Shown piece after piece: positions 13,412-62,198 of a DNA stretch of 64,000 nt. How positions within the stretch are numbered: position 1 is the stretch's first letter; the number at the start of each line of letters is the position of its first letter. The position numbers were made by a program, and so were the translations under genes. This DNA is from Escherichia phage slur14. The stretch is from sequence record NC_028448.1, one strand, 5' to 3'. The notes beneath the pieces were generated by a model. The model ran no database searches. It saw nothing but the letters and a program-made list of their open reading frames with translations, and was not told the origin of the DNA.

Positions 13412-14999
<1,588 letters not shown>

Positions 15000-55336: not shown

Positions 55337-56083
55337 TTATCCTCGGATAAGTTTAAAAATTGAACAATTCAGCGGATATCCTCTTTTCAGTTTAAGTTTA
55401 TCAATAAAAGACAAGTTTTGATACCGCTCTACACCTTGAATAATTTTATCACACATATCATATTGCATTTCTGCTTCTGACAACTTTTTCACAATTTTCC
55501 AATCCGAGCCTTTAAGAAGAACGTTCAGTTTAACAACTTCAGCGCCTTCTGCTATGCGAGAACCATCAATACGAGCTTTAAGTGCTATAATCCTTAGCTT
55601 AATATCAGAGGTCTGTTTTGATTTAGAAAGCTTAGAAATGTGTTCAATTCGGTTTTCACGTTTTTTCTGTATAGCTTTAATTTGATTATAAGTCTTTTTG
55701 ATTTTAGCCCATTTCTTTTCATCTAAATTTAGTTTATGAACTTTTTTCGCAGATGAACGACCAATTCGCAAAGCAAACAAATCACGCTTTTCGATCAACT
55801 CTTCTAAAGTATAATCAGAACGAAATGTATTATACTTTTTCTTTACTGCAATAACATTCCCTTTAATGTATCCAACGTTATTATCAAAACGTTCTAATGA
55901 TAATTTCTCTCCTTCAATACGATTATCAAAAGGTTCTCCTGAGTAAGCACAAACTTTCTGATCTAAAATGTTCTTAATGTAATTGAAGTCTAAGTTAAAA
56001 TCTTTAGAACGTCTTTTTGCAGATGCCTGGGTATGCTCTAGACGACGTTTAATTTTACGAATTTGGTTATTAGACAGCTTCAT
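55337..56083 (-). CDS. srd: Srd (sigma-related early protein)
   Basis: 248-aa basic protein between dda and modA as in T4; name from position and size. Confidence 0.7.
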   Translation of the reverse strand: MKLSNNQIRKIKRRLEHTQASAKRRSKDFNLDFNYIKNILDQKVCAYSGEPFDNRIEGEKLSLERFDNNVGYIKGNVIAVKKKYNTFRSDYTLEELIEKRDLFALRIGRSSAKKVHKLNLDEKKWAKIKKTYNQIKAIQKKRENRIEHISKLSKSKQTSDIKLRIIALKARIDGSRIAEGAEVVKLNVLLKGSDWKIVKKLSEAEMQYDMCDKIIQGVERYQNLSFIDKLKLKRGYPLNCSIFKLIRG

Positions 56084-56205
56084 ATTTTTCTCACATCTTA
56101 CGGACGGTTAACTACTTATACTATAACATTTTTACTTTAACTTGTAAACAACTTTATGAAAAATGCTTTAAAACTTTCATGGTATAATGAATCTAAGTCC
56201 TTCCA

Positions 56206-56808
56206 TTATAGATTAAATCCTTCAAAATCAAGAGTATAGATAGTGTATGTTGAATACTTTTTGTATTCATATCTATCTGCAATTCTAAATACACTTCCAG
56301 CTGGTATCATTACTTCTTGTTCATCTGAAACTAATTCCATATTACGATAACGATGACTATCCGGAAACTTAAAGTTTGGATTGTATTCTTTACAGCGTAG
56401 AGCTTTTATAGCATACTCCTGGAAATTGAACACCATAGGAGCTTTGAATTCAAAAATAACTTGTGTGTTATACTCTAAACCGGAAGCAAAATGTAGAGCT
56501 ATATTTTTATCATATGAAGCTGATACGACTTTATCAAATGTAATAATATCAATTCCTTGATTTAACACCTGCTTAGTCTCAGCTGGAACACCTCTCCAAA
56601 GAGGTTTATCGTTTGGAACCAAACGAGATTTGATTATTTCATTTAACCAAGTATGGTCATCTGGTTTGTTGGTAATACAATGAATTAAAAGTTCAATTTC
56701 AGATAAATTAAACCCTTCAGAAAGTAATTCTTCACGAATAGAAGCACGCACCGATGCATCCATTGATTTTATTTTAAAATCTTTTAGTTGCATTATTGAG
56801 TATTTCAT
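56206..56808 (-). CDS. modA: ADP-ribosyltransferase ModA
   Basis: 200 aa. Confidence 0.85.
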   Translation of the reverse strand: MKYSIMQLKDFKIKSMDASVRASIREELLSEGFNLSEIELLIHCITNKPDDHTWLNEIIKSRLVPNDKPLWRGVPAETKQVLNQGIDIITFDKVVSASYDKNIALHFASGLEYNTQVIFEFKAPMVFNFQEYAIKALRCKEYNPNFKFPDSHRYRNMELVSDEQEVMIPAGSVFRIADRYEYKKYSTYTIYTLDFEGFNL

Positions 56809-57428
56809 TCAACTACCTCAATATCATAAACTTTAAATGTTCCAAATGAATCGTGTAATTTTTCTTTTGAAATAGAAGTTATTCTATACTTTCCAATTGG
56901 AATCATCCATTCTTGTTCACGCACAATCATCATTAAGTTATCAGTACGCTCTGAATCTAGCCCATCAGTATCTTCATACGTGTACTTAAACTCAGTATTA
57001 GGAGAAGAAAGTATAATATCGCTGATATGGTCAGAATAATTAAAAGCTTTATCAGTTTTTAAGCGAAGTATTATTTTAGTAAAATATTCAGCATAAGAAA
57101 AAGAACATGCTGTGAGTAAACTAGTAGTAAATGAATCTACCCTGTTCGTTGAAAACACTTCTCCAACTTGTAAATCTTTAATAAGTTCTTCTGTTGATTT
57201 TGATATACCACGATATAACTGATATGGTGATTTAGTTAAATGCTTTTTAATGATTTTATTCAATTGCCGATGAAGAGCTTCATTCTTTTTAGCTTCCATA
57301 CATTGCCAAAGAACAGACTGCTCAAAGTCAGTAAATTTTTCACAGACCTTTTTATACATATCATATTGAAAATCAACGCTTTCAGCTTTTATAGATAACT
57401 GTTCAACATCTGCAAGATTAATAATCAT
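56805..57428 (-). CDS. modB: ADP-ribosyltransferase ModB
   Basis: 207 aa, paralogous to ModA (shared ...EQE[VW]MIP.G...RI... core), coupled to modA. Confidence 0.85.
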   Translation of the reverse strand: MIINLADVEQLSIKAESVDFQYDMYKKVCEKFTDFEQSVLWQCMEAKKNEALHRQLNKIIKKHLTKSPYQLYRGISKSTEELIKDLQVGEVFSTNRVDSFTTSLLTACSFSYAEYFTKIILRLKTDKAFNYSDHISDIILSSPNTEFKYTYEDTDGLDSERTDNLMMIVREQEWMIPIGKYRITSISKEKLHDSFGTFKVYDIEVVE

Positions 57429-57495
57429 GATAGCCTCCGTATACTTCAGAAGCTATCATATCATCGTTAGAAAGGAAAGTAAACAACTTTTTGAA

Positions 57496-57678
57496 TTATT
57501 TTGCCCAGGGAGCCCAGGGCGGAGGGTCAAGATGGTATGAAGCTAGTTCTTCTAGAAGAGCATCTGGGGCTTCAATTCCATAATTCTGTAATACTATACG
57601 GTACTCTTTCTTATAATCACTAGAATCATTCTGGATATTCGTAGAATGATTATCTTCTAACATCTCAAATAAATCCAT
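57496..57678 (-). CDS. hypothetical protein
   Basis: 60-aa acidic ORF. Confidence 0.45.
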   Translation of the reverse strand: MDLFEMLEDNHSTNIQNDSSDYKKEYRIVLQNYGIEAPDALLEELASYHLDPPPWAPWAK

Positions 57679-57686
57679 ATTAATTC

Positions 57687-58157
57687 CTAGCGATAAAAAC
57701 CAAAGTGACGATTAGCTTCAACAATCTTTCTTTCTTCTTCGGACATTCTCCAGCGTAGTCCAACATCAAAATGAGCCCAGACCATCCTAACAAATGCATT
57801 TATATCTTTAATATCTTCAATAATGAATGTTTTACTTTTAGAAGGTTGACTCGCTAATTTAACTTTATCGTCTTCAAACATGTCAAAAAGACCATATTCA
57901 TGAGCTCTTTTATAGCCTTTAATAGTTAAAGCTTCAGAAGAAGAAAACGGTGAATCAGTATTCTGCAAAATATCTTCAGTATGCTTTATAATTAGAATAA
58001 TATTTTCTGGATATTTTCTTTCTTTTATATCTTTAATTAAAATATCCGGATTTTCTGCTAAAGGAATAATTAACGAGCAATTTTTATCAAGTGTATTTAC
58101 TGATTTACCTTCTTTGGACATAAATTCTATTGAATAATGTTTTGCTACTTCAATCAT
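57687..58157 (-). CDS. hypothetical protein
   Basis: 156-aa ORF. Confidence 0.6.
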
Positions 58158-58314
58158 GTGATTTCCTTTTGCCTACTAATGGACCGTCAGGAATTTTGTT
58201 TTCCTGGATATATTTCTCATTTTCTTCCATCATTTTACTGCCAATTTTAAGAAGCAAATCCAAGGCTTCATTTGCTTTTGCTTTGGCCTCTTCTAACGTC
58301 ATATCTTTGCTCAT
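58150..58314 (-). CDS. hypothetical small protein
   Basis: 54-aa ORF not in track ([25 protein letters not shown]...); coupled to both neighbours. Confidence 0.45.
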
Positions 58315-58514
58315 GATTTATCACCGTAAATATCTCTCATTAATTTAAGAGCTGAGCGCTCTAATTTCTTTTCTTGCTCAGCTTTAATCATAGATTTCAT
58401 CCACTCTTCTGATTCGTTCTGCATTTCTTTATTTGCTTGTTCAACCCAGCCATCATCAATATACATTGAGTTTGGTCTATTGAGCCATTCAAGAATCTTC
58501 TTCAGAACTTTCAT
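58311..58514 (-). CDS. hypothetical protein
   Basis: 67-aa ORF. Confidence 0.5.
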
Positions 58515-58974
58515 TTATTTTACCTAAAACAATAGTAGGAGCATCGTCAAATTCATGAATTTTTAGCAAATTTGGTTTTAAATTATTCCATACATAATAA
58601 ATAAAGTATGATAAAGCATCTTCACTCGCAATTATAAATTTATTTCCTTCATTTATTTTCCAGTCATATACTGAATCGTACGAATAAAAAGATAAAGGAT
58701 TACCATTATATTGTTCTGCGCTAACATTAATGTATTCGGATTTAGTAAATGCTTCAATTGCTCTAAACGGACTATTTGGCACAGTTTCAATAATTCCGAT
58801 CTTTTTAAGTTTTATTTCAACATCTTCTGGAACTGGCATTGAAACGAAATTTTCTACGAGATACATAGGGTTACAATAACCCTTATCAATCACTACGGCT
58901 ACAGTAATTGGAACATCTTTAGCAAACGACATGCTATTACTGCTAATATACATTTCAAACAAAATCGCTTCCAT
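58489..58974 (-). CDS. hypothetical protein
   Basis: 161 aa from ATG at 58972-58974 (GAGGAAA SD). Confidence 0.6.
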
Positions 58975-58982
58975 AATTTTCC

Positions 58983-59315
58983 TCAATCGCAAGATGTAGA
59001 TGAACAACCAGAATCACAAGAACTTCCGCATGAATCACCTGCCCATACATGAACAGGGACATTTGTATCATATGAATCAGAACTAGACTGTGTATTAGAT
59101 GATGTAGTAGGTACTGACCAGCGCCAAGGATTTTTATAATATTCTTGGGCTTCTTCATAAGTCATAGTAACTGCTTCTACTGTTCCATCTCCCATATAAA
59201 CATATTCAACTACAGTTAAAGAGAGGTAGTCATTTGAAATAGGAACTACACCTTCTCCGGGAGTTGTAGAGAAAAAATCCGTAAAGAAACTTTTAAACCA
59301 ATTAAAGATAAACAT
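58983..59315 (-). CDS. hypothetical protein with Cys/Ser-rich C-terminal tail
   Basis: 110 aa; tail ...[13 protein letters not shown]...[20 protein letters not shown]. Confidence 0.55.
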
Positions 59316-59521
59316 TACAAAAAGCCTCTCTTGAATTCGACTTGCTTTTCGCCATAATCATATCGAATCTCTGCATTAAATTCGACAGAACCATCTGCGT
59401 ACATCATAAATGAATGCACAACAACTTCTGTAGACCATGGCTGTAGTTCATATTTCTTCATTACATGTCGTGAAATGATAATATCTAAATCTTCATTTGG
59501 TTTAATCCAGCGATTTAACAT
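59315..59521 (-). CDS. hypothetical protein
   Basis: 68-aa ORF with promoter upstream. Confidence 0.5.
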   Translation of the reverse strand: MLNRWIKPNEDLDIIISRHVMKKYELQPWSTEVVVHSFMMYADGSVEFNAEIRYDYGEKQVEFKRGFL

Positions 59522-59584
59522 AGTGCTCTCCTCTATAAGATAATTCTATTATACCATACTCATTTTGGAAAGTAAACCATTTAA

Positions 59585-59611
59585 ATGAAAAAAGGACTCC
59601 CGAAGGAGTCC
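59585..59611 (-). terminator. intrinsic terminator after soc
   Basis: Minus-strand AGGACTCCTTCGGGAGTCCT followed by TTTTTTCATTT; same hairpin as at 6421-6440. Confidence 0.65.
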
Positions 59612-59617
59612 TTGAAT

Positions 59618-59863
59618 TTATTCACCAGTTACTTTCCACAAATCTTCATTTGCAGCAATCCATTCAGTACGTTGATTTTCTTCATATACTGTAGAATATG
59701 CTGCTTTTTCTGAAGGGAATGTCTGATAATGAGCACCAGAAATTTTGTGAACGTCAGAATAAAGAGGGAAAGCTACAGAAATTTCCTTTCCTTCAATTTT
59801 CTTATTTCCATCTAATTTCTGCTCAAATGTTTTGATATTAACATAACCGCGAGTACTAGCCAT
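59618..59863 (-). CDS. soc: small outer capsid protein Soc
   Basis: 81 aa, MASTRGYVNIKTFEQKLDGNKKIEGKEISVAFPLYSDVHKISGAHYQTFP...; terminator hairpin downstream. Confidence 0.9.
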   Translation of the reverse strand: MASTRGYVNIKTFEQKLDGNKKIEGKEISVAFPLYSDVHKISGAHYQTFPSEKAAYSTVYEENQRTEWIAANEDLWKVTGE

Positions 59864-59879
59864 GTAATTCTCCTTTTAT

Positions 59880-60089
59880 TTAAATTACATGATTATTTAT
59901 AATAAATTCTCGCGGAACGTTAAAATACCCAATTTTAGTTAATATAACAACATCGCCGTTAATAATTACCGGAGAATAATCTTCTGGAGCATTAAATTTC
60001 CAATGGGCTCTAATATTATATCCATCAGAACCAAATGCTCGACTAGCCGGTCTCCCGGCTTTTTGCCATGCATAAAAATCAAATTTCAT
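59880..60089 (-). CDS. hypothetical protein (soc.1 position)
   Basis: 69-aa ORF. Confidence 0.55.
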   Translation of the reverse strand: MKFDFYAWQKAGRPASRAFGSDGYNIRAHWKFNAPEDYSPVIINGDVVILTKIGYFNVPREFIINNHVI

Positions 60090-60283
60090 TTTGAATGCTC
60101 TATAATTAATTTTAAAGCTTCTTCACTGACAAAAATTTCGTCAGGACCTTCTATAATTTCAACCATACGAAGTTGATTAGTTAAGAGCTCACACACGAGC
60201 TCTTTGTTATAATCTTTAAATAGCTGGTCAATACGTTTCTTATGGGCTTTCTTGAGCTGGCGTTTATTTAAACTAGCCATCAA
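60086..60283 (-). CDS. hypothetical protein (soc.2 position)
   Basis: 65-aa ORF. Confidence 0.55.
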   Translation of the reverse strand: MMASLNKRQLKKAHKKRIDQLFKDYNKELVCELLTNQLRMVEIIEGPDEIFVSEEALKLIIEHSK

Positions 60284-60798
60284 TAACCTCGGTCTTGACG
60301 AGCGAAGTTTTCAGCATTTTTCAGATAATAAAGTTTAAAGATTTCTTCAGCCGACATTCCAAGAGCAATAAATTTATTCATGAAAAAGTGAAATTGATCA
60401 ATCAGTTCAAATTTAATTTCAAGCTGATCTTCGGGAGATAAATCTTGAATTTTCTTGGATTGCATTTCAGAATAACGTTTCTTCCAAGGTTTCCATACAG
60501 CAGAAGCTTCTTTTTCACCATTACTCATACCACCAAGAGAAGTATATAGCTCGCGAGTTTCATCTGCGATATAATCGTCTTGGTTTCGCAACCAAGCAAG
60601 AACTTCTCCTGCAGTTTCAAGTGAATCAGGATGACGATTTGTTTCTGGCTTATCATTAGCCAAACGAATCTGTAAATGCCGCTGCATGTCAAGCATAACC
60701 TGCAATGGGTCAATACTGTGCATAATATACTCAGCATATGCACGATTTGCTTTATCAACACCTTCGATCAAATGAGCACATTCATTAAAGTGAGCCAT
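60280..60798 (-). CDS. 56: dCTPase/dUTPase gp56
   Basis: 172 aa from ATG at 60796-60798 (MAHFNECAHLIEGVDKA...). Confidence 0.9.
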   Translation of the reverse strand: MAHFNECAHLIEGVDKANRAYAEYIMHSIDPLQVMLDMQRHLQIRLANDKPETNRHPDSLETAGEVLAWLRNQDDYIADETRELYTSLGGMSNGEKEASAVWKPWKKRYSEMQSKKIQDLSPEDQLEIKFELIDQFHFFMNKFIALGMSAEEIFKLYYLKNAENFARQDRGY

Positions 60799-60858
60799 TA
60801 TTTTTCCTTTCAATTCATTAATAAGTTAAATAATTATATCATTTGAGTATGTAAGCAA

Positions 60859-62198
<1,340 letters not shown>

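Follow-up and report, generated by a model that had tools for sequence, protein, structure and literature searches.

In phage T4, the interval between modB and soc (NC_000866) holds exactly seven genes. Their RNAs, without exception, belong to the early class in T4, and six of the seven proteins were detected, Mrh.1 being the one that was not (PMC9697503, supplement 4). The interval lies inside the dispensable region of the T4 (39-56) Delta12 deletion (PMC6070864), and early expression and dispensability of the region are also supported by PMC6024815. According to PMC6070864, which cites Frazier & Mosig 1990, mrh and srh of T4 influence late transcription when the temperature is 42°C or the host is an rpoH mutant. 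Within the T4_MRH protein family, this source reports a late-transcription phenotype for T4 mrh only. Our literature searches on mrh.1, modA.3 and DUF7206, the family of Mrh.1, found nothing.

We analyzed the corresponding interval (57496-59521) of Escherichia phage slur14, using a stretch of 64,000 nucleotides of record NC_028448.1 (the window). At the nucleotide level the interval is 100% identical to that of Escherichia phage slur03, and the phage belongs to Tequatrovirus. The earlier note had described seven tightly packed small open reading frames (ORFs) between modB and soc, one of them a 110-aa product (58983-59315) with a Cys/Ser-rich C-terminal tail. Both descriptions were borne out. 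The seven ORFs lie on the minus strand with spacings of -26 to +8 nt, and a Shine-Dalgarno-like sequence precedes each. The following features were assigned.

56805..57428, minus strand: modB, 207 aa, ADP-ribosyltransferase, downstream boundary of the interval; 96.1% aa identity to T4 ModB; the slur03 and T4 annotations call it an RNA polymerase ADP-ribosylase.
57420..57465, minus strand: RNA hairpin at the modB start (strand folding, dG -20.8 kcal/mol, z -5.2).
57455..57483, minus strand: early-promoter-like site upstream of modB, TTTACT-17-TATGAT with TG (consensus scan).
57496..57678, minus strand: modA.2, 60 aa; 98.3% identical to T4 ModA.2, PHROG 1647, E 2e-31.
57687..58157, minus strand: modA.3, 156 aa, T4_MRH family; Pfam PF24070, E 3.6e-38, 96.8% identical to T4 ModA.3.
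58150..58314, minus strand: modA.4, 54 aa; 96.3% identical to T4, PHROG 2681.
58311..58514, minus strand: srh, 67 aa, postulated sigma-32 decoy; 94% identical to T4 Srh, PHROG 2441, E 4.4e-40.
58489..58974, minus strand: mrh, 161 aa from ATG; Pfam PF24070, E 1.4e-41, 77.6% identical to T4 Mrh.
58983..59315, minus strand: mrh.1, 110 aa, DUF7206, bears the Cys/Ser tail; PF23836, E 3.5e-27, PHROG 2031, E 1.3e-33.
58986..59045, minus strand: codons of the Mrh.1 C-terminal tail, W91-D110 (alignment of homologues).
59315..59521, minus strand: mrh.2, 68 aa; 98.5% identical to T4 Mrh.2, PHROG 1873, E 1e-36.
59548..59576, minus strand: early-promoter-like site upstream of mrh.2, TTTACT-17-TATAAT with TG (consensus scan, 10/12 matches).
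59592..59613, minus strand: intrinsic-terminator-like hairpin after soc, 9-bp stem, UUCG loop and U run (dG -15.1, z -4.6).
59618..59863, minus strand: soc, 81 aa, small outer capsid protein, upstream boundary; Pfam PF16855, E 2e-55, 98.8% identical to T4 Soc.

Comparison with T4 settled the identity of the interval. The segment 13198-15232 of NC_000866, from modA.2 to mrh.2, shares strand, order, number, sizes and overlaps of the genes as well as the flanking modB and soc; Mrh.1 has 110 aa here and 113 in T4. Six of the proteins are 94-98.5% identical to their T4 counterparts, and Mrh is the exception with 77.6%. Every ORF matched a PHROG family (E 1e-31 to 1e-61) and three matched Pfam, with the 156- and 161-aa proteins turning out to be T4_MRH paralogues; the statement that the ORFs lack recognisable motifs did not hold. 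All seven genes are already known and annotated in T4. The gene set matches T4 one for one, and therefore the premise of more ORFs than T4 carries was wrong. Differences to T4 are the diverged mrh allele, a missing linker NTQ unit in Mrh.1, and soc.1/soc.2 downstream of soc in the window where T4 has segF. The data are best explained if these genes form the canonical block modA.2-modA.3-modA.4-srh-mrh-mrh.1-mrh.2 of T4. We consider this highly probable; gene identities, synteny and protein-level selection on the Mrh.1 tail are observed directly.

The cluster had also been called variable. A total of 539 phage records matched the interval and 496 of them carry at least 80% of it in one piece, nearly all with at least 90% nucleotide identity. 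Relative to T4, divergence is confined to the mrh block (about 58600-59000, 79-88% nucleotide identity), with surroundings at 96-100%. Variability was thus not found with respect to T4, but gene content does differ between genera of T4-like phages, which have 2-4, 6 or 7 genes in the interval. These data bear on the idea, implicit in the note, of an expanded, phage-specific anti-defence island with extra genes relative to T4. The adjoining ADP-ribosyltransferases, the location in a dispensable region, the changing gene content between genera and the hypervariable mrh, a behavior often seen in counter-defence genes, speak for it. Against it, the gene set is identical to that of T4 and conserved in about 500 genomes; the part of the idea that concerns extra genes is refuted. 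The literature searched held no anti-defence function for any of the seven genes, and PADLOC, which holds defence proteins, returned only a spurious 12-bit BrxC match for Mrh.2. An anti-defence role is purely conjectural, and we regard such an island as improbable.

Expression signals were analyzed next to the gene content. The promoter-like site at 59548..59576 was the top score of the consensus scan and lies within the 96-nt gap between soc and mrh.2. The site upstream of modB is 100% identical in T4. Since the total number of sites in the scan did not exceed that in shuffled sequences, the modB site rests on its position and its T4-early-like GTTTAC/TG-10 form. In the modB hairpin, the Shine-Dalgarno sequence and the AUG are paired with a 5' arm, part of which coincides with the promoter -10 element, and none of 200 shuffles was equally stable. 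No RNA families were found by Rfam in 56000-61000. The interval is a series of non-essential early genes with close translational packing, and an early promoter immediately downstream of the soc terminator appears to drive it.

Two of the seven proteins belong to one family. ModA.3 and Mrh score 131.1 and 142.1 bits against Pfam T4_MRH (PF24070; cut-off 24.4), with matches spanning the whole model, and by sequence ModA.3 is a distant paralogue of Mrh (about 19% identical). JS98-like six-gene loci have a single copy of the family, of the ModA.3 type, in contrast to the two copies found here. The gene mrh is the most diverged of the interval and falls into more than 100 clusters at 90% identity. 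In the open-reading-frame listing its ORF can be extended to a TTG at 59007. The AlphaFold model of Mrh is poor (pLDDT 52). Foldseek matches of this model in the PDB (APOBEC, PhzF) had only E > 1 and were treated as noise. A PDB sequence search with all seven proteins and with the Mrh.1 and MRH profiles gave no credible match. Srh is an ortholog of T4 Srh (94% aa identity). Its resemblance to region 4.2 of E. coli RpoH is weak (29% over 38 aa, pairwise BLASTP E 0.006) and would fail a database-sized search. A host-takeover role had been proposed for the ORFs; for mrh and srh this is consistent with the effects on late transcription described in PMC6070864. Among the other ORFs, modA.2 adjoins mod in 19/19 related loci examined, and modA.4 is 79-87% identical to its JS98-like homologues, the top value in the interval.

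Sequence comparison identifies the 110-aa product as Mrh.1 (Pfam DUF7206, PF23836; PHROG 2031). It scores 95.6 bits against a gathering cut-off of 25.6 and covers model positions 1-107 of 107. In an alignment with T4 Mrh.1, 107 of 113 columns were identical and a 3-aa NTQ deletion was seen here. In T4, slur03 and 19 related loci, the gene takes the place just promoter-distal to soc (after mrh.2 where the locus has one), on the promoter-proximal side of mrh or srh. The stop codon of mrh.2 and the start of mrh.1 share 1 nt. Conservation of Mrh.1 extends over roughly 760 genomes of T4-like phages of enterobacteria, and the DUF7206 family is restricted to such phages. When 1.84 billion representatives were searched exhaustively with phmmer, only 10 hits appeared, all from the same phage family or artefacts. 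P0056 and P0008 were rejected as relatives, the former being a repeat protein and the latter a chimeric assembly. Truncated or frameshifted mrh.1 alleles occur in several isolates; therefore, Mrh.1 is dispensable under some conditions.

In the protein, an N-terminal amphipathic helix (hydrophobic moment 0.47-0.79) is followed by a conserved beta-hairpin and helix around EYVYMGDG(T/M)xExV; a disordered linker, rich in Ser and variable, then leads to the C-terminal motif. The AF2 model is poor overall (pLDDT 58) with an ordered core of about 30 residues. It places helices at 4-14 and 53-61 and the hairpin at 34-52, with core pLDDT values of 73-86 and the remainder disordered. No ordered fold of the tail was seen in this model; the last ten residues had a pLDDT of about 50, and values fell below 50 at 69-82, 86-93 and 97-99. 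Mrh.1 shares with the DUF7206 family an N-terminal WLK..F motif, the EYVYMGDG hairpin and a C-terminal SC[D/G]...CD motif. Other members have a helical 'NVG..LPLNSKKLKEHL' segment and a hydrophobic IVVAAAV stretch where T4-clade members carry a linker of their own, and the T4-clade tail has four Cys as opposed to two. An equivalence between Tyr and Cys positions of the clades was dropped, as the extra T4 Cys do not fall cleanly on Tyr columns of the alignment.

The composition of the tail had been considered unusual for a T-even early protein. Residues 66-110 contain 14 Ser, 5 Thr, 5 Asp and 4 Cys. T4 carries this Cys/Ser tail in its own Mrh.1, the same but for one substitution; G103 here is Ser in T4. 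In enterobacterial T4-like phages (49 complete homologues), SC[D/G]-x5-8-CD-COOH at the C-terminus is one of the best-conserved parts: the CD ending was found in 49/49, two Cys are universal, and 45/49 have two tail Cys. An alignment of 39 sequences had 15 invariant columns, of which five lie in the last 12 residues. Invariant in these 39 were S99, C100, D101, C109 and D110 in the tail and Y38, Y40, G42, D43 and G44 in the core. Position 101 is Asp in most members and Gly in P0055, L010, L011 and L013, and thus the universal residues are C100, C109 and D110.

Could this pattern arise from something other than a translated tail? The codons vary synonymously (TGC/TGT, GAT/GAC and TCN/AGY switches), and three unrelated sequences follow mrh.1 among the homologues. 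The tail is therefore translated and under selection. A ribosome-binding-site or RNA constraint from the downstream gene was rejected as the cause of conservation on the same two observations. The tail alone exceeds the DUF7206 cut-off. A compositional accident or an untranslated frame would fit with the low complexity of the tail, which is masked by BLAST, and with the failure of shotgun proteomics to detect Mrh.1 (PMC9697503, supplement 4). However, non-detection is expected from the tryptic peptides, which are 8, 53, 4 and 45-48 aa long. A Shine-Dalgarno-like sequence precedes the mrh.1 ORF, the start of which is coupled to the mrh.2 stop; both speak against an untranslated frame. Cross-genus conservation of the motif despite synonymous changes and Ser codon-family switches effectively refutes accident and untranslated frame alike, and we give this explanation next to no weight.

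As to function, the two Cys-Asp pairs of the tail would sit at the tip of a flexible tether and serve as a thiol/carboxylate ligand set. This set would bind either a metal ion of Mrh.1 itself, perhaps so as to bridge a dimer, or a host target through its metal or thiol centre. Such a tethered metal-ligand role is our best guess, a tentative one that we hold weakly. Four or more conserved metal-ligand Cys/His residues in one chain were not found; only C100 and C109 are conserved, and thus a classical single-chain Cys4 site is excluded for most DUF7206 members. No zinc-finger, metallothionein or other metal-binding family matched Mrh.1 in Pfam, searched also with relaxed settings, or in NCBIfam (best FeoB_associated, E 3.3). 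In a more far-reaching form, to which we assign a somewhat smaller chance, SC[D/G]-x5-8-CD-COOH on its disordered Ser-rich tether behind the amphipathic helix and hairpin mini-domain might be an undescribed short effector module. As a thiol/carboxylate hook, it would catch a metal ion or plug the metal or thiol centre of some target conserved in enterobacteria, perhaps one from the sigma-32/FtsH heat-shock axis touched by the neighbours Mrh and Srh.

FtsH is the membrane protease that controls sigma-32, and lambda CIII inhibits FtsH. By analogy, the tail could be a disordered bait that docks on a host protein such as FtsH, at its zinc site and in a cysteine-switch-like manner, with the N-terminal helix bringing Mrh.1 to the membrane. 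Mrh.1 would then share in the heat-shock theme of Mrh and Srh. The amphipathic helix, the long disordered linker and the Cys and Asp at the free C-terminus suit this idea, as does gene position: T4-type loci all have mrh.1 beside mrh and srh, and JS98-like six-gene loci have it beside srh. Yet in T4 early regions adjacency argues only weakly for a common function, and in the most distant loci (L003, L019) mrh.1 occurs without srh or mrh. Docking of this kind seems unlikely to us.

RiPP cores, for example those of microcin B17, SCIFF and freyrasin, are Ser/Cys/Gly/Asp-rich C-termini; microcin B17 contains thiazole/oxazole heterocycles and ranthipeptides contain Cys-Asp thioethers. The Mrh.1 tail resembles such cores in composition, is strongly conserved and sits at the extreme C-terminus, so that it might be the core of a ribosomally made peptide with heterocycles, thioethers or a C-terminal adduct. 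However, no cyclodehydratase/YcaO, radical-SAM or other maturase is annotated from dda to dam in slur03 and T4, where all genes are known T4 genes. No NCBIfam or Pfam precursor family matches Mrh.1, its N-terminal part is a conserved, partly folded mini-domain unlike a typical leader, and the tail has only two conserved Cys. A modified peptide is very improbable.

In summary, the analysis mainly rediscovers seven annotated T4 genes and leaves the Mrh.1 tail as a modest question. What is useful is a sharper description of Mrh.1, one of many T4 orphan early proteins, with the Cys-Asp motif among its most constrained parts. Standard tryptic proteomics can barely detect Mrh.1, a possible reason for its neglect. 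The closest known counterparts of its tail are the SlyD C-tail, the DCxxC/CCCDGAC segments of ZntA and microcin B17, all flexible terminal segments with Cys and rich in Asp, Ser or Gly. Mrh.1 differs from these Cys-rich metal-binding tails and RiPP cores by having two conserved Cys only, with neither a sequence-family match nor nearby maturase genes, and the likeness lies in composition alone.

As the earlier note had described, seven ORFs occupy 57496-59521 between modB and soc, with products of 60, 156, 54, 67, 161, 110 and 68 aa. All are on the minus strand. Neighbouring ORFs lie -26 to +8 nt apart and a Shine-Dalgarno-like sequence is found ahead of every start. The 161-aa ORF starts with the ATG at 58974; the automatic ORF call reaches further, to an upstream TTG. 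All seven ORFs gave PHROG family matches (E 1e-31 to 1e-61). The interval 57429-59617 showed 100% identity to the Tequatrovirus Escherichia phage slur03 and matched 539 phage records, 496 of them over at least 80% in one piece. The cluster had been taken to be larger than that of T4. This was an error, since the T4 reference NC_000866 has exactly the same seven genes from modB to soc, as does the slur03 annotation. The cluster consists of known T4 genes, annotated as such and arranged as usual.

T4 genes of the interval, length of the T4 product and identity of the window product to it (pairwise, amino acid)
modA.2, 60 aa, 98.3%
modA.3, 156 aa, 96.8%
modA.4, 54 aa, 96.3%
srh, 67 aa, 94.0%
mrh, 161 aa, 77.6%
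mrh.1, 113 aa, 94.7%
mrh.2, 68 aa, 98.5%

Compared with T4, the description of the cluster as variable held only for a mosaic patch over mrh (~58600-59000), where nucleotide identity was 79-88%, against 96-100% elsewhere. mrh (58489-58974) is the sole strongly diverged gene of the interval, and in the protein database its product falls into more than 100 clusters at 90% identity, against essentially one large cluster for Mrh.1. These comparisons suggest that the mrh allele is hypervariable and mosaic. Pfam PF24070 (T4_MRH) is matched by ModA.3 as well as by Mrh, and the two are paralogues with ~19% identity. On related contigs, ModA.2 carries the precomputed Pfam label PF26838 and Mrh.2 the label PF26878. 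Sequence searches found no relative of solved structure for any of the seven proteins, and with the poor AlphaFold model of Mrh (pLDDT 52) every Foldseek match had E > 1. Some Mrh database proteins (P0156, P0064, P0083, P0153) are filed under Bacillus cereus, Salmonella enterica, Shigella sonnei and Shigella flexneri; their contigs of ~164-172 kb most likely represent genomes of T4-like phages that were submitted as part of bacterial assemblies. In RefSeq NC_054907.1 (phage T6), the feature under the Mrh.1 match (14389-14664) is labelled 'prohead assembly scaffold protein', and in many other records ModA.2, ModA.3 and ModA.4 are labelled 'molybdenum ABC transporter periplasmic binding protein'. 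Both labels are likely misannotations; the latter was evidently carried over from modA as the name of a bacterial gene.

Between genera the interval does vary, because gene content differs among the locus types:
Tequatrovirus: soc-mrh.2-mrh.1-mrh-srh-modA.4-modA.3-modA.2-modB-modA
Six-gene loci typified by JS98 (related loci L004, L010-L015, L018, L020, L021): Tequatrovirus order without mrh, with one MRH-family gene
More distant Citrobacter phage Moon, Serratia phage CHI14 and contig L003: only mrh.1, modA.2 and sometimes modA.3 in the soc-mod gap

Across genera, no other protein of the interval is conserved as well as ModA.4 (54 aa; 58150-58314), with 79-87% identity to its JS98-like homologues, compared with 31-69% for its neighbours. 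This level of conservation suggests that ModA.4 may take part in a strongly constrained interaction. Beyond the cluster, between soc and gene 56 (59880-60283, minus strand), the window carries soc.1 and soc.2 (69 and 65 aa), whereas T4 has the GIY-YIG homing endonuclease gene segF at this position.

The 110-aa product, Mrh.1 (58983-59315), matches PF23836 (DUF7206) end to end and has the Cys/Ser-rich C-terminal end exactly as first read. By tblastn with divergent members as queries, the family was found in about 730-760 records of phages of Escherichia, Shigella, Klebsiella, Yersinia, Salmonella, Citrobacter, Enterobacter, Serratia and Kosakonia. Exhaustive phmmer against 1.84 billion representative proteins turned up nothing beyond this family of phages. 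From the family alignment, AlphaFold2 produced a low-confidence model (mean pLDDT 58) with a predicted core (pLDDT 73-86). Predicted elements are an N-terminal helix (4-14), a hairpin (34-40/46-52) and a second helix (53-61), followed by predicted disorder over residues 62-110. The N-terminal helix is amphipathic (hydrophobic moment 0.47-0.79), and further conserved motifs read M(I/F)xW(L/F)K..F and PGEGVVPI...EYVYMGDG(T/M)xExV.

Alignment of 39 family sequences revealed 15 invariant columns, five of them within the last 12 residues (S99, C100, D101, C109, D110). Outside this alignment, Gly replaces D101 in database protein P0055 and loci L010, L011 and L013. Every one of the 49 complete homologues retrieved has CD as its last two residues, and 45 have exactly two tail Cys, 5-8 residues apart; the terminal Cys-Asp is invariant and the upstream Cys is followed by Asp in most members. 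Compared with these homologues, the T4 clade has elaborated its tail to four Cys in a clade-specific way. T4 Mrh.1 has the tail of the window with one substitution; apart from this, an NTQ unit of 3 aa in the linker sets it apart. Synonymous variation is seen in the terminal codons (TGC/TGT, GAT/GAC), Ser is encoded now by TCN and now by AGY codons, and the DNA past the stop codon occurs in three unrelated versions. Therefore, conservation acts on the protein. The same synonymous changes and differing downstream sequence rule out an RNA or RBS element as its cause. By its codon pattern the tail is translated and selected, contrary to the untranslated frame considered in the earlier note. Allele variants of mrh.1 were seen in the related phages P0003 (235Ecol030PP), P0004, P0005, P0006, P0009, P0011 and locus L009. 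One is a 164-aa chimera with a JS98-type middle segment, MEEIIRQPEKAGNVG...IITATAVSSW, between a T4-type N-terminal part and a T4-type tail. In several others the copy carries a frameshift or is truncated, which fits a dispensable gene.

In T4, the interval falls inside the dispensable (39-56) Delta12 deletion; at 42 C, and in some rpoH mutants, mrh and srh have an effect on late transcription (PMC6070864; see also PMC6024815). Time-resolved omics place the RNAs of all seven genes in the early class and detected ModA.2, ModA.3, ModA.4, Srh, Mrh and Mrh.2, but not Mrh.1 (PMC9697503 supplement 4). This absence is expected, because its tryptic peptides have 8, 53, 4 and 45-48 residues. Mrh.1 is a dispensable, early-transcribed protein confined to enterobacterial T4-like phages, and two Cys under selection sit at its free C-terminus, on a flexible tether. 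Tentatively, the tail Cys and Asp may serve as thiol and carboxylate ligands, either for a metal held by Mrh.1 itself or for a metal or thiol centre of a host protein. With two Cys per chain, an own metal site would be dimer-bridged in most clades. No zinc-finger or metallothionein family match was obtained for Mrh.1, and a Cys4 pattern does not hold across the family. The proposed likeness of Srh to sigma-32 is weak (in region 4.2, 29% over 38 aa with a pairwise E of 0.006). By analogy, FtsH might be a docking partner of Mrh.1, which would match the sigma-32 theme of Mrh and Srh; we consider this improbable. RiPP-like modification of Mrh.1 is more doubtful still and very unlikely, because no maturase gene is annotated nearby, there is no precursor-family match, and the N-terminal part forms a conserved, partly folded unit. 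The literature searched contained no mention of mrh.1 or DUF7206. The sole remaining point of interest in the cluster is the conserved C-terminal Cys-Asp motif of Mrh.1.

Putative regulatory signals, all on the minus strand, were found at the following positions:
59592-59613, minus: terminator-like hairpin after soc (dG -15.1, z -4.6)
59548-59576, minus: T4-early-like promoter site ahead of mrh.2 (TTTACT-17-TATAAT with TG)
57455-57483, minus: second T4-early-like promoter site, ahead of modB
57420-57465, minus: RNA hairpin at the modB start (19-bp stem, dG -20.8 kcal/mol, z -5.2)

The terminator-like and promoter-like signals fit the early-expression picture from the T4 literature. In the modB hairpin, the Shine-Dalgarno GGAGG and the AUG pair with the 5' arm, part of which coincides with the TATGAT -10 element of the proximal promoter-like site. 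The modB start would be sequestered in read-through transcripts from the mrh.2 promoter, and transcripts from the proximal promoter (start ~57448) would be without the 5' arm. The hairpin segment is 100% identical in T4, and such a start-sequestering arrangement is known for some other T4 genes.
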